A DNA stretch of 64,000 nt from Verrucomicrobiia bacterium (GTDB lineage: Bacteria > Verrucomicrobiota > Verrucomicrobiia > Palsa-1439), in NCBI GenBank assembly GCA_041495285.1, contig JBGQCJ010000001.1, positions 73,182 through 137,181 on the forward strand, given 5' to 3'. The notes beneath the pieces were generated by a model. The model was not told where the DNA came from, ran no database searches, and worked only from the letters and a program-made list of their open reading frames with translations. The position numbers and the translations under genes are program-made. How positions within the stretch are numbered: position 1 is the first letter of the stretch; each line of letters starts with the position of its first letter. Of this stretch, positions 24,442-54,655 are shown one piece after another.

Positions 24442-26064
24442 CTACAACATCTCCTCCTGCTTTCCCTTCTCCGCTTTCGGCGCGGCTTTCAAACCTGTGA
24501 CGGCTTGTTTTGGGAACTCAAAATTCTTTCCCGCGAACAACTGCTCTACTGTGCGGATTTGAATGCGCGGGAACTTGCCCCAACTCTCCGATTCAAACAC
24601 GCCGCCGTGCGCCGCTTCTTCCAGCATGTCCTTTGTCGGTTTGGCGTTGCAGATGTAGAAACCCATCGCCGCTTTTTCCCGCTGCACGACGCCGATTAAA
24701 TCCCGAATCTCACTCACGCCGATATTTGCGCCGCTTTTCACTTGAATGATGGCGCGCTGGACTGAATTTTTTGGGCCGTCGAGGAATGGAATGTAGCCAT
24801 CCATCCCTTGGTCGCTGCCTTTCTTATTTTCGCCGCCCATGGGAAAGCCGCCAATTTTTGAGACCGCCCAATATTGAAACTGATACTTGTCCTTGAGCTT
24901 CTTCGACTCCGCCAACGACGACGCGCTTGCCGCGTCCTTCGGCTCGCCAATCACTTCGTAATCTTTGTCCTCCTCCGCGCCGAGTCCTTTGAGGCGGAAC
25001 TTGATCAAGCCGATGGCCAGATGCGTAATATCAATGCCAATCCATTTTCGTTTCAATCCGTGCGCCACCGCCACCGCCGTGCCACATCCGCAGAATGGAT
25101 CGAGCACTACGTCACCTTCGTTGCTGCTAGCTTTGATAATGCGCTCCAATAGCGGTTCGGGCTTTTGCGTCGCGTAGCCCATGCGCTCCTCTGCCTGCGA
25201 GTTAATCGGGAGAATGTCAGTCCAAACATTGCCTGTCAGCGTGCCTTGCATCTCATCCAGATAGCGCTTTAACTGCGGACGTTTTGATTTACTGTCTGGA
25301 TACCAGATACGCCCTTCTGCTTCCAATTTCGCCATCGTCTCTTTTGAATAACGCCAACCTGCAGGAGGTGAAGCGTGTCCCTTCCATTCATACATCATGT
25401 TAGGGCGCGGGTTCGGACTGGTCATGTTATCCAATCTGTATACCCGTCCATCTGGATCGGCGTGACGATATTTGGATTTGAGATATTCGTCGGAATGCGG
25501 AGTGTAAATCGCATTCCACGCAAATCTGTCGGACTCGGTGTAAAAGAAAATTGTGTCGCTAACCTTGCTCCACGTTTTGCTGTCGCTGTGAACGTTTGTG
25601 CGCTGCCAAATAATTTCATTGCGAAAATTCTTCGCCCCAAAAATCGCATCCAAAATCATCTTCAAGTAATGCGACACGGTCGGGTCGCAATGGAGGTAGA
25701 GCGAGCCGGTTGGTTTAAGGACGCGGCGCAGTTCGATGAGGCGCGGCGTCATCATCACGAGGTAAGCGGTCACGTCGTTGTGTTTGCCGAGGACTTTCTG
25801 GAATTGCTCGATGAGGACAGCGATGTCGGAATACGCGGAAGTCTTTAGCGCGTTGAACGTCAACTCTGCATCTTCCGTCCAGTGCCACGAATCCTCGAAG
25901 GCGGTGATCTGCGAAGCGGCAAGCGCGCCCGTGCGTTCCTTGAAGATGACGTTGTAGTCGCGCTTGGAATTAAACGGCGGGTCGAGATAAACGAGGTCAA
26001 CGGATTCGTCGGCGATATGCTTTTGCAGGACTTCCAGATTGTCGCCGAAGAAGAGTTGGTTCAT
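24442..26064 (-). CDS. Beta-class N6-adenine/N4-cytosine DNA methyltransferase with C-terminal Mrr/PD-(D/E)xK-like domain
   Basis: Motif IV 'DLVYLDPPFNS' precedes motif I 'VLDPFCGCGTAVAVA' (beta-class order). A ~150-aa C-terminal extension carries 'GMDGYIPF...AIIQVKSG' (D...QVK). Confidence 0.8.
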   Translation of the reverse strand: MNQLFFGDNLEVLQKHIADESVDLVYLDPPFNSKRDYNVIFKERTGALAASQITAFEDSWHWTEDAELTFNALKTSAYSDIAVLIEQFQKVLGKHNDVTAYLVMMTPRLIELRRVLKPTGSLYLHCDPTVSHYLKMILDAIFGAKNFRNEIIWQRTNVHSDSKTWSKVSDTIFFYTESDRFAWNAIYTPHSDEYLKSKYRHADPDGRVYRLDNMTSPNPRPNMMYEWKGHASPPAGWRYSKETMAKLEAEGRIWYPDSKSKRPQLKRYLDEMQGTLTGNVWTDILPINSQAEERMGYATQKPEPLLERIIKASSNEGDVVLDPFCGCGTAVAVAHGLKRKWIGIDITHLAIGLIKFRLKGLGAEEDKDYEVIGEPKDAASASSLAESKKLKDKYQFQYWAVSKIGGFPMGGENKKGSDQGMDGYIPFLDGPKNSVQRAIIQVKSGANIGVSEIRDLIGVVQREKAAMGFYICNAKPTKDMLEEAAHGGVFESESWGKFPRIQIRTVEQLFAGKNFEFPKQAVTGLKAAPKAEKGKQEEML

Positions 26065-47079: not shown

Positions 47080-49290
<2,211 letters not shown>

Positions 49291-49336
49291 CGGCGATCTC
49301 ACACAGAGTTCGCAGAGCCAGCAGAGTTTGTCACTG

Positions 49337-49370
49337 GAGGGCCACGCTCCGTCGTGGCCGCTCCTTTTCT
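49337..49370 (+). terminator. Rho-independent terminator downstream of the glyA fusion
   Basis: 'GGAGGGCCACG ctccgt CGTGGCCGCTCC' hairpin followed by 'TTTTCT', 47 nt after the stop. Confidence 0.55.
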
Positions 49371-49400
49371 GTCACCCTGAGCTTGTCGAAGGGTCTCGCC
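49371..49400. repeat. Short dispersed-repeat unit 'GTCACCCTGAGCTTGTCGAAGGGTCTCGCC' ('SLSKG' unit)
   Basis: Translates to '...VTLSLSKG...' in the spurious 48798..49469 ORF. Only one copy is visible in this window, so repeat status rests on prior knowledge. Confidence 0.3.
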
Positions 49401-49692
49401 GTCGCTACACTCTCGTTCAGGAGAAACTATCGAGACCGATTAACTAACTCACACAATCATTTCGCGTAGCTTCGGCTGCTGTTCTCCACGAAACGGACAA
49501 TTTCGACTTCAAGGACGGCGCTCGAAGGCACGCCCCGCAAGGGCGTGTCTGAAAGCGTTCCTTGAAGGGCATGTCCGTGCCTGTGGAGGAGCGTGAGTAG
49601 GTCACGCCCCTTCGTTTTACTGGCACAAGCATCCCTTCAAGGAAGCCATCCCCTCAGACAGGGCTGAATCGCACACGCGAGCGAGGAAGCCC

Positions 49693-51501
49693 ATGTCTTA
49701 CCTAGAACGCTCACTCAAAGACGGCCATGCCAAACTTACCGGTGAAGGCAAGCAACAGAAGATTCTCTACGTTGCCGTCAATCACACCGAACGCTACTCA
49801 GACCCTGAGGAGCAGGTTCGCGCGGAGTTTTGGGCCGAGTTGATTTACCGGTATGGGTACGAGCCGGCGCGAATTGGCGTCGAAGTCGTCGTACCGGACC
49901 GGACGCCTTCCGATCGCGCTGATCTGGTTGTGTTCCGCGACGATGAGCGCAAGAAGCCTTACGCAGTTGTGGAGTGTAAGCAAGACGGCATCACTGACGC
50001 CGAGTTCAATCAGGCAGTCGAGCAGGCTTGCGGAAACGGCACGTGGGCAAAGTTCCGCGCCACATACGTCGGCGTTGTTGCCGGCATGACACGTCGCTTC
50101 TTGGATTTCTCCGAGAAGTACGGCGTTCTGGAACGTGAAGCAAACATCGTTGCCGATCTGCCGGGCAAATACGGACGGCCAGAGGAATACCGGTTTTACA
50201 AGGGCGACCAGAACAACGACATCCAACTCGTCAGCAAAGAAGCCCTCATCGCCGCCATTAAGAAATGCCATCAAACGCTTTGGGGTGGTGGCAAACTCTC
50301 GCCGCCTTCGGCCTTCGGTGAACTCTGCAAAATCATCTTCGTCAAAATCAGCGACGAGCAGGCCAAGCGGAAGAAGGGCGAACCTTACGAATTCCAAATC
50401 AAAACCTACGAGCAAAGCCGCCGGCTGGCGGAACGCATCAAATCACTGTACGACGTCCAGAAGCTGAAAGACCCGGATGTCTTCACCGACACCATCAAGA
50501 TTGACGACGCGAGTCTCCGCACCGTCGTTTCACACTTGGAGAGCATCAACCTCAGTAAAACCGACCTCGACACCAAGGGCGTCGCCTTCGAGCAATTCAT
50601 GGATGGATTCTTCAAGGGCGACTTCGGACAATTTTTCACCCCACGCGAAATGATCGCCTTTGCCGTGGACATGCTACCGCCCGGCAATGAAGACCTTGTT
50701 CTCGATCCCGCCTGCGGTTCCGGTGGTTTCCTGCTCCACGTACTCGACGCCATCCGCCGGGAAGCGACCGAGTACCACCCGGAAGGTTCGGAAGAGCACT
50801 ACAAACATTGGCACGACTTCGCCAAAGAACGGTTGTTTGGCATCGAGATCAACGACGAAATTGCCCGCGTCGCCAAGATGAACATGATTATCCACGACGA
50901 CGGCCACAGCAACGTCATCGGCGCAGACGCGCTCGACCGCGTTGAGCGGCTCAACTCCGTGAACCGTGGATTTTCCAAGGGGCGCTTTACTCGCATCTAC
51001 ACCAATCCGCCTTTCGGCTCGCAGGTAAATCTCGCTGAGCGGCCTTATCTTGCCGATTACGTTCTCGCCTCTGCCGTGGACGCAAAGGGCAATTCCAAGC
51101 AGCGCAAGAACCAGAAAACCGAAATCCTGTTCATCGAACGTATCTGGCATTTCCTCAAACCCGGCACCGGTCACGCCGCCGTTGTGTTGCCGGATGGTAT
51201 TCTCACCAACTCATCGCTGCAACCCGTCCGCGATTTCCTGTTGGAACACTTCCAAGTCTTGGCCGTGGTCAGCGTGCCGCAGACGGCGTTTAGTCATTAC
51301 GGTGCTGGCGTCAAATCCAGCTTAGTCTTTCTTCGCAAACGTGCAGACGACGAGAAACCCAAGGATTCCGAAGCCATTTTTATGGCCGTGCCGGAACTGA
51401 TCGGCTACGACGCGACTGGCCGCAAGTGCGACAATCAACTCCCCGAAGTCGCGGAACAATATCGGCAGTTCCAGAAGGACGCTCAACCTTTTTTCGTCTA
51501 A
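49693..51501 (+). CDS. hsdM: Type I restriction-modification N6-adenine methyltransferase subunit with N-terminal HSDR_N-like PD-(D/E)xK domain
   Basis: 'LDPACGSGGFLL' motif I and 'IYTNPPFGSQ' motif IV. The N-terminal 'RADLVVFRDDERKKPYAVVECKQ' is a PD-(D/E)xK-type core. Confidence 0.85.
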   Translation: MSYLERSLKDGHAKLTGEGKQQKILYVAVNHTERYSDPEEQVRAEFWAELIYRYGYEPARIGVEVVVPDRTPSDRADLVVFRDDERKKPYAVVECKQDGITDAEFNQAVEQACGNGTWAKFRATYVGVVAGMTRRFLDFSEKYGVLEREANIVADLPGKYGRPEEYRFYKGDQNNDIQLVSKEALIAAIKKCHQTLWGGGKLSPPSAFGELCKIIFVKISDEQAKRKKGEPYEFQIKTYEQSRRLAERIKSLYDVQKLKDPDVFTDTIKIDDASLRTVVSHLESINLSKTDLDTKGVAFEQFMDGFFKGDFGQFFTPREMIAFAVDMLPPGNEDLVLDPACGSGGFLLHVLDAIRREATEYHPEGSEEHYKHWHDFAKERLFGIEINDEIARVAKMNMIIHDDGHSNVIGADALDRVERLNSVNRGFSKGRFTRIYTNPPFGSQVNLAERPYLADYVLASAVDAKGNSKQRKNQKTEILFIERIWHFLKPGTGHAAVVLPDGILTNSSLQPVRDFLLEHFQVLAVVSVPQTAFSHYGAGVKSSLVFLRKRADDEKPKDSEAIFMAVPELIGYDATGRKCDNQLPEVAEQYRQFQKDAQPFFV

Positions 51502-52883
51502 GCCCCGTCGCCGTAGGCAAGCCGGCTTGCTTTGCGGTCAGACGGGGCGAAGTCAAAGATCGGATCGATCCGAAGTTCATCCTCCTCGGTGGACATCAGA
51601 AGATCGCCGGCTTGCCAACTGCCACACTCGGTAGCCTAACTATTCGCGAACCCGATTACGGTTCGAGCGTGCGCTCCGTGCCGATGAAATCTACGGACGA
51701 CGTGAAATACATCCGTATCACCGATTTTGACGACGACGGGATTCCGCTCGGTCATGAGTTTGTTACCGCAGAAGTGATTGAGGAGGATGCCAGACTCCAG
51801 CACAACGACGTGCTATTTGCACGAAGCGGGGCGACAGCGGGGAAAACCTACATTCACAACAAGGAAATCGGACCGGCTGTGTTTGCCGGGTACTGCATTC
51901 GATTCAAGTTCGACGCGCAGCGTGTCTTACCCAAATTCGTGTACTACTACACGAAGACCACTCGATACCAAGCATGGGTGCGCTCCATTCAGAGGCCGGC
52001 AGGCCAACCCAACATTAACAAGGAGGAATTCAAGGCTTTCATAATCCCTGTGCCTGATACGGATATTCAGGCGAAGCTGGTATCTGAGCTTGAGGTGGCC
52101 CGGTCGACCACAAAGAACAAACTCGCACAGTCGGATGATTTGTTAGACGGATTCGACAACTTCATACTGGATGCACTCGGCCTGACTGCGCCGTCGCAAG
52201 AAAAGCGGATGTGTTTCGCTGTCAGACTAGGCCAAATCGACGGCGCGCTGAACGCCGAACGTTACGCCGGGCTGAGATTGGCGCAACCGATTCAAGGAAC
52301 GGTTGTCAACAAGGTTGCTGAAATCCTTGAAACAAAAATTGCTCCATCGAAGGTCGCGCCCAATGCCAACTGGGATTGGATTCGGATTGATGACTTGGAG
52401 AACCATCCTCTTACAATTGACAAGATGCGAACGGCAATTGGTTCGGAGATAGATGGAACATTTTTTGAAGTCAGCGAGAACGACATTTTGCTTGCGCGCC
52501 TTGGCCCGACGATTCAGAACGCAAAATTCGTTCTCTGTCCCCAAACGAAACGCCGCACTGTCGCTTCCGGCGAGTTCCTCGTGTTGCGGTGTCGGGGCGG
52601 CTGGAATCCGGCAGCCGTGTTGTGGGTCTTGCGGACAAAGTTATTGAGAAACTTGATGTATTCAAAAGCCCGTGGCGGCACACCAAGTCGGTACCGGCTG
52701 CACCGCGATGACCTTGCAGCAATGCCTTTTCCGGAAATGAACAGCCACAAGCAGAACGCCCTAATCGAAGAAATTAATCGCCGCATTCTTCGTGTTCAAC
52801 ACTTGCGCGCAGAGGCGGTAGCCGAGTGGACGGCCGCGAAAACCCGATTTGAGCAACAACTATTGGGGACCGGCAAGCCATGA
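51426..52883 (+). CDS. hsdS: Type I R-M specificity subunit (two target-recognition domains); true start probably near 51500
   Basis: Duplicated TRD pattern ('VLFARSGATAGKTYIH' / 'ILLARLGPTIQNAKFV') with conserved coiled-coil spacer regions. It directly follows hsdM. Confidence 0.75.
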   Translation: MRQSTPRSRGTISAVPEGRSTFFRLSPVAVGKPACFAVRRGEVKDRIDPKFILLGGHQKIAGLPTATLGSLTIREPDYGSSVRSVPMKSTDDVKYIRITDFDDDGIPLGHEFVTAEVIEEDARLQHNDVLFARSGATAGKTYIHNKEIGPAVFAGYCIRFKFDAQRVLPKFVYYYTKTTRYQAWVRSIQRPAGQPNINKEEFKAFIIPVPDTDIQAKLVSELEVARSTTKNKLAQSDDLLDGFDNFILDALGLTAPSQEKRMCFAVRLGQIDGALNAERYAGLRLAQPIQGTVVNKVAEILETKIAPSKVAPNANWDWIRIDDLENHPLTIDKMRTAIGSEIDGTFFEVSENDILLARLGPTIQNAKFVLCPQTKRRTVASGEFLVLRCRGGWNPAAVLWVLRTKLLRNLMYSKARGGTPSRYRLHRDDLAAMPFPEMNSHKQNALIEEINRRILRVQHLRAEAVAEWTAAKTRFEQQLLGTGKP

Positions 52884-53548
52884 ACCAGCTTCCCTATCTG
52901 TTGGATGAGATTTGCGCGGGCGTGGAAGTCTATTACACCGGGCGCACGGGTGGGCAGTATTTCAAAACCGCATTTATCCTCTGCGACGATTATACCGAGC
53001 TAACCGCCAAACTGTTTCTGCTGACTGACAACACACATTGGTCGGATGCGAAAGGCGGCGGCTTCAAGAATTATTCCGATATTCAAACCGACGTTGAAGC
53101 AGTTTTCACCGCTAAGCGCGCTGCTGCCTTGCCAACGGTGACTGCGCTCCATTCCAATTTGCTGTCGCGGCGCGCAAGTCGGAACGGCTTCTTTCATAAA
53201 ACGCATTTCCTCAACCTGAGCGTCACGCCACGAGGCTGCGTTGAGTCTTTTTGTGATCTGTTCAGCTATGGAGAGTTGCTATTCGGCAATGACTGGACTC
53301 AGGCCGTTGCCGCGACGCGGAACTTGGAAACGCTGGTCATCTTGCTCAAATTGGAAAAGAAGAGTTTCAGCGAGCCATTGGTGTGGCCGAAAGTTGAGGA
53401 AATCATCAAGACATGGCCGCGCAACAAAAAGAACTCAGCGCAGACCGGCGTTCACCTGACCATGCACCCCGAAGACATGCACCTGCGCTTGACCGTGACG
53501 TATGGCCACAAAGCCCTACGCGATAAACTGGCAGCGCTGTTGCTTTGA
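52880..53548 (+). CDS. Hypothetical 222-aa protein translationally coupled (ATGA) to hsdS; no recognisable domain
   Basis: Start overlaps the hsdS stop and it has the same lower-GC composition as hsdMS. It occupies the slot where hsdR would be expected. Confidence 0.4.
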   Translation: MNQLPYLLDEICAGVEVYYTGRTGGQYFKTAFILCDDYTELTAKLFLLTDNTHWSDAKGGGFKNYSDIQTDVEAVFTAKRAAALPTVTALHSNLLSRRASRNGFFHKTHFLNLSVTPRGCVESFCDLFSYGELLFGNDWTQAVAATRNLETLVILLKLEKKSFSEPLVWPKVEEIIKTWPRNKKNSAQTGVHLTMHPEDMHLRLTVTYGHKALRDKLAALLL

Positions 53549-53698
53549 GAGGGTGATGGGTGACGCCATTCCATCCGTAACCAATGGACGCGACGGAGCG
53601 CGTCCCTCCAAAATCAGGTTTGACCTCCCGGCAGGGCTTCGCTAGTGTCGGGGCTGCGAGGACGTAGCACCCCGGTTGTTTAATCAGGAGAACTCAAG

Positions 53699-54655
53699 AT
53701 GATTGTCACCACCGCGCAGTTGTTCAAGGTCGCCTACGGCAAGTACGCCTTGGGCGCCTACAACATCAACAACCTCGAACAGACCGTCGGCCTGTTCAAA
53801 GGCAACGTTGGAAGCAAGGCGCCGTTCATCATCCAACTCAGCAAAGGCGCGCGCAAGTACACGGACAAACGTTATCTCGAAGCGATGATCCGCACGTCGG
53901 AGCAAGTGTTCCCGGAGGCGATTTTCGCGGTGCACCTCGATCACGGTGACGAGGAGACTTGTTACGACTGCATCAAGTCCGGTTTTTATAGCTCGGTCAT
54001 GATCGACGCGAGTCATCACGACTTTGAGGAGAACATCGCCATCACCAAACGCGTCGTCGAGGCGGCGCACGCTCGCAACATCAGCGTCGAAGCCGAACTC
54101 GGTATGCTCGGCGGCGTCGAGGAAGACATCGTCGGCTCGGTCTGCCTCACGAAGCCGGACGAAGCCGAGGAATTCGTCAACCGCTCCGGCTGCGATTGTC
54201 TCGCGGTCGCGATTGGCACCAGCCACGGCGCGTACAAGTTCAAGGCCGAACCCGGCAAGAAGATGGGTCTCCACTTCGACGTGATCGAGGCAATCCACAA
54301 GAAACTGCCCGGCTATCCGATGGTGATGCACGGCAGCTCCAGCGTGCCGAAGGATGAAGTGGATCGCATCAACAAAGCCGGTGGCCACATGCCGGACACC
54401 AGCGGCGTGCCGGAAGAAGATTTCCTGCCGGCCGCGAAGATGGGCGTGTGCAAAGTGAACATCGACACCGATGGCCGGCTGGTCTGGACGCGCGTGCACC
54501 GGGAATTCTTCCGCGACCACCCGGACAAGTTTGACCTGCGCGATCCCGGTAAGATTTACATCGAAGAGTACGCCAAGATGATTGCCCACAAGAATCAAGT
54601 GCTGGGTTCGGCGGGCCAACTCGACGACGTGCGCGCGAAAGTCGGCAAAAAGTAA
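53699..54655 (+). CDS. fba: Class II fructose-bisphosphate aldolase
   Basis: N-terminal 'AYNINNLE' and 'VHLDHGD' Zn-binding motifs. SD 'AGGAGA' at 53685-53690. Confidence 0.9.
   Translation: MIVTTAQLFKVAYGKYALGAYNINNLEQTVGLFKGNVGSKAPFIIQLSKGARKYTDKRYLEAMIRTSEQVFPEAIFAVHLDHGDEETCYDCIKSGFYSSVMIDASHHDFEENIAITKRVVEAAHARNISVEAELGMLGGVEEDIVGSVCLTKPDEAEEFVNRSGCDCLAVAIGTSHGAYKFKAEPGKKMGLHFDVIEAIHKKLPGYPMVMHGSSSVPKDEVDRINKAGGHMPDTSGVPEEDFLPAAKMGVCKVNIDTDGRLVWTRVHREFFRDHPDKFDLRDPGKIYIEEYAKMIAHKNQVLGSAGQLDDVRAKVGKK

Follow-up and report, generated by a model that had tools for sequence, protein, structure and literature searches.

Type IIB R-M enzymes such as BcgI and BsaXI carry nuclease and methyltransferase on one polypeptide and act with a separate specificity subunit (S), and BsaXI assembles as (RM)2S (PMC11997821). 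Type I enzymes such as EcoKI encode HsdR together with M and S, and within their M2S1 assembly the M C-terminus abuts the S N-terminus. An engineered fusion of EcoKI M to S ('Type IMS') is active and needs free M in vitro (PMC3510504). HEPN proteins have also been linked to R-M systems, in at least 16 clades, and have been proposed to act as latent second-line RNases, with PrrC as the model for latency of a HEPN protein within an R-M operon (PMC3710099).

We analysed a locus of three consecutive genes within a window of 64 kb, by which we mean the whole stretch of DNA examined:

49693-51501, + strand: RM gene, 602 aa, zero-frame product ending in PFFV and a stop
51489-52883, + strand: S coding region in the -1 frame, with two recognition domains, identified by S homology (Pfam, PADLOC)
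52880-53548, + strand: gene for a 222-aa HEPN-fold protein, a predicted RNase, its start overlapping the S stop (ATGA)

The initial annotation had placed these reading frames at the same positions, including the end of S at 52883. Our reading, to which we assign a probability of roughly 60%, is that the locus encodes a Type IIB-like system in which RM and a frameshift-made RM-S fusion would act together with a latent HEPN RNase. The evidence is computational: comparative sequence analysis shows the domains, the invariant residues, the order of the genes and a conserved signal in the nucleotide sequence, and from these we infer frameshifting, subunit stoichiometry, mode of cleavage and the part played by the RNase.

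A nuclease-methyltransferase and S subunit resembling BcgI and BsaXI

As in BsaXI and BcgI, an N-terminal PD-(D/E)xK nuclease, a helical connector and a gamma-class N6-adenine methyltransferase lie in a single open reading frame, here with two annotated domains:

49804-50016, + strand: nuclease core, RM residues 38-108 (HSDR_N_2; E39/E40, D77, E94, K96)
50569-51396, + strand: methyltransferase domain, RM residues 293-568 (motif I DPACGSGGF, motif IV NPPF)

The canonical methyltransferase core claimed in the initial annotation is borne out by the Pfam N6_Mtase match across residues 293-568 (E 1.7e-34), with motif I as DPACGSGGF and motif IV in the context TNPPFG. The N-terminal nuclease proposed there also has Pfam support, at residues 38-108 (E 1.6e-11), though its family is HSDR_N_2 (PF13588) rather than the suggested PF04313. 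E39/E40, D77, E94 and K96 are invariant across 43 homologues of 53-91% identity, among them all three residues (D77, E94 and K96) of the 'D...VVECK' stretch on which the nuclease assignment was first based. The predicted structure of M is poor overall (pLDDT 65); its nuclease region follows the order alpha-beta-beta-beta-alpha-beta, with D77 at the start of strand 2 and the ExK motif at the end of strand 3, at a local pLDDT of only ~50-85. Motif order and model topology suggest that these residues correspond to the BsaXI catalytic cluster E73, D90, E105 and K107.

The best sequence match of M in the PDB is RM.BsaXI (E 2.7e-36, compared with ~1e-19 for type I HsdM), and the top three Foldseek matches to the M model are BsaXI RM chains, aligned full-length over ~650 columns (E 6e-22). 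The BsaXI RM is longer (916 aa) and has a C-terminal knob and paddle that are missing from the 602-aa RM here. Public sources label M as 'type I restriction enzyme M protein', and its best PADLOC model is MTase_I (PDLC03030, E 3.5e-130).

Two recognition domains in S, as had been noted initially, are supported by a Pfam Methylase_S match at residues 119-227, by matches of the PADLOC S models (Specificity_I) in two stretches, and by the alignment of the two S halves to each other as an internal repeat (E 5e-4). S resembles EcoKI HsdS. An N6-adenine M with a two-domain S is what type I enzymes also have, and the M catalytic domain is homologous to that of EcoKI; here, however, M carries its own nuclease, and no HsdR is encoded with M and S. 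The HsdS-like subunit and the lack of an ATPase or translocase are shared with BsaXI and BcgI. Because RM.BsaXI, a Type IIB enzyme, is the closest solved relative, a translocase-independent nuclease-methylase with S is a known kind of enzyme, and the 'orphan type I' label given to this locus is therefore a misnomer. Of the two alternatives offered with that label, the first, translocase-independent restriction with the nuclease on M, is favoured by the invariant residues, the proximity to RM.BsaXI and the missing helicase, but it is not new, as BcgI and BsaXI already have this architecture (PMC11997821).

Membership in MADS was considered and rejected. MAD2 is homologous to M, including its N-terminal domain, and MAD5 to S, but the scores fall far below the equivalog cut-offs (303.7 against 720 for MAD2, 43.5 against 400 for MAD5), and the flanks hold no other mad gene.

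A candidate -1 frameshift signal at the M-S junction

In dnaX and in transposases of the IS3 family, an X_XXY_YYZ heptamer, a short spacer, a stem-loop downstream and a zero-frame stop soon after the site yield two products of a single mRNA in a set ratio. The 3′ end of the RM gene contains the same elements:

51489-51495, + strand: slippery heptamer T_TTT_TTC (X_XXY_YYZ in the M frame; codons P599-F600-F601)
51502-51548, + strand: GC-rich hairpin of 47 nt, outer stem GCCCCG/CGGGGC, whose 3′ arm encodes the S motif CFAVRRG

The heptamer lies in the zero frame just before the M stop, and the hairpin begins 6 nt downstream, inside the 5-9 nt range for a stimulatory structure. Judged by sequence, this arrangement of heptamer, 6-nt spacer and 47-nt hairpin is a textbook signal for programmed -1 frameshifting. 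It differs from the dnaX and IS3-family signals in its heptamer (U_UUU_UUC rather than A_AAA_AAG), in its R-M operon context and in having no conserved Shine-Dalgarno-like stimulator, such a sequence occurring upstream in 24 of 59 sequences. To our knowledge, the bacterial heptamers classically regarded as highly efficient do not include U_UUU_UUC. The initial annotation did not mention a signal at the end of M, which we regard as the most unusual trait of the locus.

Heptamer, spacer and hairpin are conserved nearly base for base across many phyla: among the 65 related loci that hold the 3′ end of M, 57 carry the heptamer in frame, with 6 nt between it and the end of the M stop. All 44 unique M genes whose coding sequence reaches 1.2 kb or more have NNT TTT TTC here. 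In the rest of these genes, 35% of Phe codons are TTT and the T-ending synonym has a share of 21%. The codon before TTT TTC varies (CCT, TCT, AGT, CGT, CTT or GAT) around an invariant wobble T, and the synonymous positions of the heptamer are fixed against codon usage.

The downstream structure is equally regular. A hairpin is found at the fixed 6-nt spacing in 54 of 54 unique sequences, and an 81-nt segment of the window folds at -35.6 kcal/mol (z -3.56). For the 53 sequences with a recognisable 3′ arm, the hairpin averages -26.5 kcal/mol, with a mean interior z of -2.25. Its covariation score exceeds that of 500 of 500 shuffles, and the outer pair is swapped from G-C to C-G in two loci (L212 and L213). 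Formal covariation is modest, RNAalifold recovers the nearly invariant outer stem alone, and the 3′ arm is also under coding constraint.

We propose that a fraction of ribosomes would slip back by one base on U_UUU_UUC, stimulated by the hairpin, and continue into S, which would have no independent initiation. One mRNA would then yield RM (602 aa) and an RM-S fusion (1063 aa) consisting of M residues 1-601 followed by RLSPVAVGKPACFAV..., and the two would assemble as the equivalent of the BsaXI/BcgI (RM)2S1 complex. A fusion yield of this kind fits (RM)2S assembly. This complex would modify a bipartite target in the host by methylation; unmodified DNA would be cleaved close to the site, with no translocation powered by ATP. 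The mixture of M and M-S that the engineered EcoKI fusion requires is what a frameshift would supply (PMC3510504), except that the fusion here would arise naturally and sub-stoichiometrically, through recoding rather than mutation. A natural in-frame M-S fusion, joined at the equivalent point, is present in one related protein (P0150).

Initiation of S

That a two-domain S follows M, as initially annotated, holds, but the start of this gene is undefined. In the window, the interval from the M stop to the conserved N-terminus of S contains no ATG, GTG or TTG; the sole candidates are GTG 51426, which lies 76 nt back within M, and TTG 51612, which falls within the first recognition module. S would apparently be made only through the -1 slip at the end of M, unlike in BsaXI and BcgI, where it has its own start. 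In the related loci S is always in the -1 frame relative to M, and the frame opened by the heptamer runs for 455-554 aa in nearly all of them, ending at the start of the third gene.

The strongest competitor, which we nonetheless consider improbable, involves no recoding: S would be initiated independently at GTG 51426 or TTG 51612, the heptamer would reflect a conserved C-terminal Phe-Phe, and the hairpin would tune translational coupling or mRNA stability. GTG 51426 would give a 485-aa S overlapping M by 76 nt, and a start codon at -76, -94 or -97 is found in 20 of 54 loci; many loci have a TTG ~90-110 nt downstream, and gene callers annotate a separate S in related loci. In three loci (L058, L212 and L213), a GTGA or ATGA stop/start overlap at the M stop occurs together with heptamer and hairpin, so classical translational coupling may be an additional function of the signal, or its function in place of frameshifting.

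Several observations argue against independent initiation. In 22 of the 54 loci, ATG, GTG and TTG are all absent from the upstream in-frame stop to position +50, so that the conserved N-terminus of S has no canonical start before it, and the S frame of 15 loci is open for no more than 3-15 nt ahead of the heptamer. Downstream starts fall after the onset of HsdS homology. They would also delete the N-terminal motif CFAV(K/R)RG, which lies upstream of the first possible downstream start; this motif recurs at the start of the second recognition module and is therefore real protein. The heptamer's synonymous positions are held against codon usage. Finally, loci without the heptamer (L014, L094 and L108) do carry an S start of their own, which overlaps the M stop.

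The frameshift reading, if true, would make this, as far as we could find, the first R-M system with a demonstrated dependence on translational recoding; our literature search returned no report of recoding between M and S genes or in an R-M operon. Defence systems would then be added to the few bacterial genes known for programmed -1 recoding, and setting the RM to RM-S ratio by a frameshift would be a new way for multi-subunit R-M enzymes to control their stoichiometry. Annotation pipelines would, moreover, systematically truncate the S gene across the nuclease-methyltransferase family. For that family as a whole, we lean slightly towards a widespread R-M group in which a conserved -1 frameshift would hard-wire a 2:1 ratio and gate a HEPN toxin.

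A predicted HEPN RNase encoded downstream of S

The third gene begins at a 4-nt stop/start overlap with S (gccATGAacc), confirming the ATGA coupling first noted. Coupling of this gene to the S stop recurs in nearly every locus that bears it. Given the overlap, we propose that its product would be made only by frameshifted ribosomes. The 222-aa protein had been described as domain-less, and it indeed has no Pfam match and no other domain in Pfam, NCBIfam or PADLOC; that description nevertheless gives way to a HEPN fold, an all-alpha helical bundle with the motif R101-N-G-F-F-H106 (RNxFFH, of the Rx4-6H type). R101, N102 and H106 are invariant in 49 close and 14 distant relatives. This fold and the invariant motif make the protein a predicted RNase. 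The Pfam family HEPN_Cthe2314 (PF18730; gathering threshold 27.1 bits) does not match the window protein and gave weak matches in 10 of 49 homologues (best E 6.5e-4); the top score among members checked one by one was 19.3 bits.

A HEPN-fold protein with an intact Rx4H motif inside an M/S operon recalls PrrC of EcoprrI. The protein here differs in being a single HEPN domain without the ABC-ATPase domain of PrrC and RloC, in belonging to an unannotated family with weak, sub-threshold similarity to HEPN_Cthe2314, and in having a Type IIB-like rather than a type Ic partner; BsaXI and BcgI, for their part, have no such gene coupled downstream. By analogy with PrrC, the RNase would be held latent by the RM/S complex; disabling or loss of that complex would free it to cut RNA, as a second-line defence or as an addiction toxin. 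The suggestion that this protein is a new effector thus survives as a predicted HEPN RNase, while the class itself has already been tied to R-M systems (PMC3710099) and the gene is optional: of six related loci anchored on M, five lack it (L111, L115, L116, L212 and L213) and one has it (L114). In L213, the slot after S is occupied by a different HEPN family (Hypoth_Ymh, E 7e-23).

This variability bears on a second, quite unlikely alternative, in which the locus would be a modification-only methyltransferase with S, its nuclease-like domain serving, for example, DNA binding or assembly and gene 3 being a toxin or passenger with no relation to it. In its favour, relatives can do without gene 3, and domains like HSDR_N_2 are also present on MAD2 of MADS (NCBIfam match at M residues 32-578). 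The strict invariance of the nuclease residues argues instead for retained catalysis, and the coupling of gene 3 to S and the second HEPN family in the L213 slot also count against this alternative. The two unrelated HEPN families that share the slot after S offer a clean natural test system for a long-standing and mostly untested idea, the latency of RNase toxins within R-M complexes.

Neighbourhood and proposed mobility of the cassette

No ResIII or helicase domain was found in any open reading frame of at least 450 aa across the whole 64-kb window, extending the initial observation that no hsdR-like gene is nearby, and none of nine distinct related neighbourhoods with gene and Pfam tables (among them L001, L002, L004, L111, L112 and L114-L116) has a helicase gene within 6-10 kb. 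An ordinary split type I system, its M and S encoded at this locus and translocation and cleavage supplied by a canonical hsdR from some other part of the genome, is very unlikely: it would suit the public name of M, the PADLOC models MTase_I and Specificity_I and the resemblance of S to EcoKI HsdS, but not an M that carries its own nuclease with invariant catalytic residues, lies much closer to RM.BsaXI than to any HsdM, moves with its cassette as a unit and has no helicase near it in the window or in the nine neighbourhoods. On our reading, the labels 'type I M' and truncated 'S' given in public genomes hide a probably large family of ATP-independent, BcgI-like enzymes with many specificities, which could be useful reagents.

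Around the cassette lie housekeeping genes (zwf, purD, an S41 peptidase, LMWPc-rpiB-glyA and fba), and apart from a protease the flanks gave no match to defence models. Gene order is M-S-third gene in every locus anchored on the third gene that has sufficient upstream DNA, and the M-S cassette, with or without the third gene, travels as a unit through many phyla. Our proposal is that these three genes form a self-contained defence cassette that is mobile and has inserted between glyA and fba. An inverted repeat flanks it:

49335-49359, no strand: left arm, 25 nt, 84% complementary to 53586-53610
53586-53610, no strand: right arm, 25 nt, pairing with 49335-49359

Whether this repeat is part of the cassette is uncertain. 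An exact search with the right-arm sequence, allowing up to three mismatches, matched only itself, and flanking inverted repeats are not general among the related loci. The left arm also resembles a terminator after glyA.

A Type IIB-like enzyme core and a third gene

The cassette comprises three genes on the forward strand, and a check of open reading frames bore out the positions assigned to them in the initial annotation:

49693-51501 (+), M (or RM), a 602-aa nuclease-methyltransferase with Pfam matches to N6_Mtase (residues 293-568, E 1.7e-34) and HSDR_N_2 (residues 38-108, E 1.6e-11)
51489-51495 (+), heptamer T_TTT_TTC near the 3′ end of M
51502-51548 (+), hairpin just past the M stop codon
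ending at 52883 (+), S, a two-recognition-domain subunit in the -1 frame
52880-53548 (+), T, the third gene, encoding a 222-aa protein

The methyltransferase core reported for M is present, with motif I (DPACGSGGF) and motif IV (NPPF) both in the 602-aa protein. S is the two-domain HsdS homologue that had been described, matching Methylase_S in Pfam and many PADLOC Specificity_I models, several of them in two separate stretches, and one half of S can be aligned with the other (E 5e-4). The S stop and T start overlap as gccATGAacc, as expected from the ATGA coupling first noted, and the reported lack of a helicase holds across the entire 64-kb window, in which ORFs of at least 450 aa contain no ResIII or helicase domains.

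Despite the original "type I-like" label, M lies nearer to the Type IIB R-M enzyme RM.BsaXI. In a PDB sequence search, RM.BsaXI is the best solved relative of M (E 2.7e-36, residues 155-555), with type I HsdM proteins at ~1e-19. Since the AlphaFold (AF2) model of M is mediocre (pLDDT 65), we restricted its use to topology and a coarse fold search. Foldseek placed three BsaXI RM chains on top (E 6e-22, with ~650 aligned columns covering the whole protein) and type I HsdM next (~4e-14, ~430-455 columns). In this pLDDT 65 model, the nuclease region follows the α-β-β-β-α-β order of a PD-(D/E)xK core, with D77 opening strand 2 and E94-x-K96 closing strand 3, and residues E39, E40, D77, E94, C95, K96, Q107 and E110 are invariant in 43 M homologues (53-91% identity). 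BsaXI itself is an (RM)2S heterotrimer; it cannot cleave without its N-terminal PD-(D/E)xK residues E73, D90, E105 and K107, which are conserved among Type IIB enzymes (PMC11997821). A profile of the nuclease domain returned chance matches only against PDB sequences. Because BsaXI is closest by both sequence and fold, and given the invariant residues and PD-(D/E)xK topology, the proposal of a translocase-independent system with its nuclease on M appears supported; it is not new, however, and would correspond to the known Type IIB architecture mislabelled as type I. Public names for M-type proteins are "type I restriction enzyme M protein" or "N-6 DNA methylase". We rejected the methylation-associated defence system MADS as an identity for the locus because NCBIfam MAD2 and MAD5 scores fall far under their cut-offs and other mad genes are absent nearby.

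A conserved candidate frameshift signal between M and S

A translocase-free RM and S pair is thus of an already known, Type IIB-like kind, and the locus is worth attention for a different reason: a putative frameshift signal between the two genes. Among the related loci compared, the 3′ end of M is near-identical across phyla, reading NNT TTT TTC GTC TAA GCCCCG...CGGGGC. The heptamer T_TTT_TTC lies in the M frame, 6 nt ahead of the end of the stop codon, in 57 of the 65 loci that hold this end of the gene. The codon preceding its two Phe codons varies (CCT, TCT, AGT, CGT, CTT or GAT), though always with T as its last base, and the Phe codons are invariably TTT then TTC. Elsewhere in these M genes (44 unique), TTT accounts for only 35% of Phe codons, and the T-ending synonym is used only 21% of the time. 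This contrast between fixed codons and usage elsewhere in the same genes shows that the heptamer is selected at the nucleotide level.

In each of the 54 unique sequences the hairpin starts exactly 6 nt past the heptamer, with a mean free energy of -26.5 kcal/mol (53 sequences with a recognisable 3′ arm). With the conserved outer stem removed, the interior retains a mean z of -2.25 against dinucleotide shuffles (negative in 51/53); the 81-nt segment from the window folds at -35.6 kcal/mol (z -3.56). Applied to the 54 frameshift regions, RNAalifold recovered the six-pair outer stem only, because inner-stem registers differ between lineages, and we therefore used a hand-specified structure together with per-sequence folding and shuffles. 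The covariation score of the hand-specified structure, whose 3′ arm is also under coding constraint, exceeded those of 500/500 shuffles and of all slid controls. Pair 20-57 is seen as C-G, A-U, U-A and G-C, and in two viral contigs, L212 (~6800) and L213 (~6833), the outer stem has its first pair reversed, which turns GCCCCG/CGGGGC into CCCCCG/CGGGGG. A Shine-Dalgarno-like stimulator lies upstream in 24/59 sequences and is not conserved. An Rfam search of 49200-53800 returned nothing at E up to 1. We also considered an intrinsic terminator at the hairpin and discarded it, as no T-run follows on either strand.

S is always in the -1 frame, and in nearly all loci the ORF running from the heptamer is 455-554 aa long and ends at the T start. 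In the window, the stretch from the M stop to the conserved N-terminus of S contains no ATG, GTG or TTG. In 22/54 loci the region between the upstream in-frame stop and +50 holds no canonical start, and in 15 the S frame opens just 3-15 nt 5′ of the heptamer. The sequence across and just past the hairpin encodes the peptide SPxxxxxCFAV(K/R)RGExxxRxD. Because this peptide is conserved whichever recognition domain comes next, and reappears where the second recognition module begins, it is evidently translated as part of a real protein. The first downstream starts, TTG 51612 in the window and ATG 51684 (used by the public annotation), would delete it.

As read from sequence, the heptamer, spacer, stem-loop and start-less -1 ORF together show the classic layout expected where ribosomes undergo a programmed -1 frameshift. 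We put the probability that such a frameshift operates in this family at roughly 0.7-0.75, and that of the full mechanism around it somewhat lower. Two products are predicted: RM alone, at 602 aa, and a 1063-aa RM-S fusion made up of M residues 1-601 and then RLSPVAVGKPACFAV... At intermediate efficiency, frameshifting would supply a mixture of M and M-S, equivalent to (RM)2S1.

Fusions of this kind have both natural and engineered counterparts. P0150 (locus L111, 6001-8502), a 76%-identical homologue, is a natural single-ORF fusion of M with a one-domain half-S (833 aa). Its joint, ...NPEP|SEDP..., falls exactly where the frameshift would join M and S, and its locus lacks the heptamer, the hairpin and the HEPN gene alike. 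An EcoKI HsdM-HsdS fusion works in vivo and requires added free HsdM in vitro, from which Roberts et al. concluded that the active enzyme pairs one M with one M-S fusion (PMC3510504); intermediate frameshifting would supply this same mixture here.

The strongest alternative is that S has an independent start rather than arising by slippage. GTG 51426 in the window could serve as a start for an S that overlaps M by 76 nt, and a start is found at -76, -94 or -97 in 20/54 loci. This leaves the 22 loci lacking a canonical start. Overlap starts also occur at the M stop alongside the heptamer and hairpin, as GTGA in L058 and ATGA in L212 and L213; because start and signal are found together in these loci, classical coupling appears to coexist with the proposed slip, or in some lineages to replace it. 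In L212 and L213 both routes to S may be open, and these loci could be evolutionary intermediates. Natural controls favour the slip: in the heptamer-less loci L014, L094 and L108, S has its own start, overlapping the M stop. Transcriptional slippage at the T6 run is less likely than ribosomal slippage, as the run is short and a conserved structure lies downstream of it.

The reading of S as a product of ribosomal frameshifting bears on its annotation. Gene callers begin S at the first available start, 35-215 nt past the M stop (L001, L002, L004, L112 and L114-L116); in the record of the window's own genome (GCA_041488115.1; L112, 8805-10004), the called ATG at +183 cuts into the first recognition module. 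S is probably mis-annotated wherever this RM/S family is present. We found no description of recoding between M and S genes in the literature, which, given incomplete coverage, is absence of evidence only; a conserved -1 signal linking M and S is to our knowledge unreported, and is directly testable.

At several loci (L002, L006/L035, L024, L025, L052 and L068) the -1 ORF from the heptamer is just 128-251 aa, with S apparently split or interrupted and T kept. These may be half-S arrangements or decaying copies.

T is a predicted HEPN protein

The 222-aa T protein had been described as domain-less, and it does have zero matches in Pfam, PADLOC and NCBIfam. Its AlphaFold model, built from a 49-sequence alignment, is nonetheless confidently all-α (pLDDT 85.6, pTM 0.84), and the family carries an invariant R101-N102-x-F-F-H106, which is the Rx4-6H signature by which catalytic HEPN RNases are defined (PMC3710099). 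R97, R101, N102, H106, D36, E40 and K44 are invariant even in relatives at 17-26% identity. Sub-threshold matches to Pfam HEPN_Cthe2314, all weak and ending at the motif, occur in 10/49 members, and a family profile gave chance matches only against PDB sequences. The family is small, with 124 representatives in a set of 1.84 billion clustered proteins. A set of distant relatives (P0312-P0335, ~290-350 aa), for which Pfam gives no annotation, has a ~100-aa insertion past the second helix and keeps the same seven residues.

Among loci collected by their M homologue, T is optional: it is present in L114 and absent from L116, L111 (the fusion), L115, L212 and L213. In the prophage locus L115 (11215-12531), S is followed by an unrelated 113-aa protein, its start overlapping the stop of S, and then by a weak TIR-like protein. 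In L213 (8255-8986, an IMG/VR contig), the gene directly 3′ of S is Hypoth_Ymh, a different HEPN family (E 7e-23), and a weak DndB-like protein comes next. Because two unrelated HEPN families occupy the identical slot, these loci argue for a functional link between HEPN proteins and RM/S, and suggest that the position behind the RM/S core is a variable slot for effectors.

By motif and model, T is best described as a HEPN partner, a new addition to a familiar theme. At least 16 HEPN clades are tied to R-M operons, and by analogy with PrrC/EcoprrI it was proposed that the R-M complex keeps the RNase latent and that inhibition of the complex releases it (Anantharaman et al., PMC3710099). By analogy, the likeliest role for T, which we put forward tentatively, is that of an RNase held latent by the R-M complex; the main alternative is an addiction toxin. 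Given the overlap between the start of T and the stop of S, most translation of T would come from frameshifted ribosomes, tying T dose to RM-S dose.

Distribution, mobility and genomic context

T has more than 200 homologues, none annotated (54-73% identity among the matches listed), with named carriers that include Chloroflexi, Acidobacteria, Nostoc, Armatimonadetes, Schekmanbacteria and Tepidisphaeraceae. From genomes and metagenomes we collected 105 T-anchored loci. All those with enough upstream DNA carry M, S and T in that order on a single strand, at identities of 52-84% for M and 38-77% for T, with S variable, as recognition domains are. In nine distinct related neighbourhoods, gene and Pfam tables list no helicase within 6-10 kb, and the flanks are mutually unrelated. 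Judged from these comparisons, the M-S-T cassette is a conserved, mobile unit. A signal-pattern scan of IMG/VR yielded 95 DNA stretches, none encoding an M homologue; with a pattern of ~32 bits these are chance matches and were discarded. A protein-based scan of IMG/VR found two loci only. In the Tepidisphaeraceae locus L001 (9715-18669), the cassette sits on a larger mobile island: behind it come a 532-aa NucS_C-domain protein, a Mu Gam-like gene, a serine recombinase and an integrase.

All flanks of the cassette in the window are housekeeping genes: zwf, purD, an S41 peptidase and an LMWPc-RpiB-SHMT fusion on the 5′ side, and a class II aldolase on the 3′ side. Across the cassette, GC drops from ~0.61 to ~0.54. 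A 25-nt inverted repeat brackets the cassette (49335-49359 and 53586-53610, 84% complementary), each arm being palindromic itself; an exact search of the 64 kb with the right arm returned only itself. Such repeats are not general among related loci and were rejected as a mobility signature; this pair may be an insertion scar, terminators or chance.

The LMWPc-RpiB-SHMT gene (47080-49290, +) is one 736-aa ORF joining an LMWPc phosphatase, RpiB and serine hydroxymethyltransferase, an unusual three-enzyme fusion, unrelated to the cassette, on whose arrangement the public annotation agrees, at 720 aa. Elsewhere in the window, 24442-26064 (-) encodes a 540-aa protein with an N6_N4_Mtase domain (E 7e-44) and a C-terminal Mrr_cat / NA-iREase1 nuclease-like domain, in a low-GC patch (~0.50 versus ~0.60 elsewhere). 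This is a second, unrelated methyltransferase-nuclease fusion, within a probable island.
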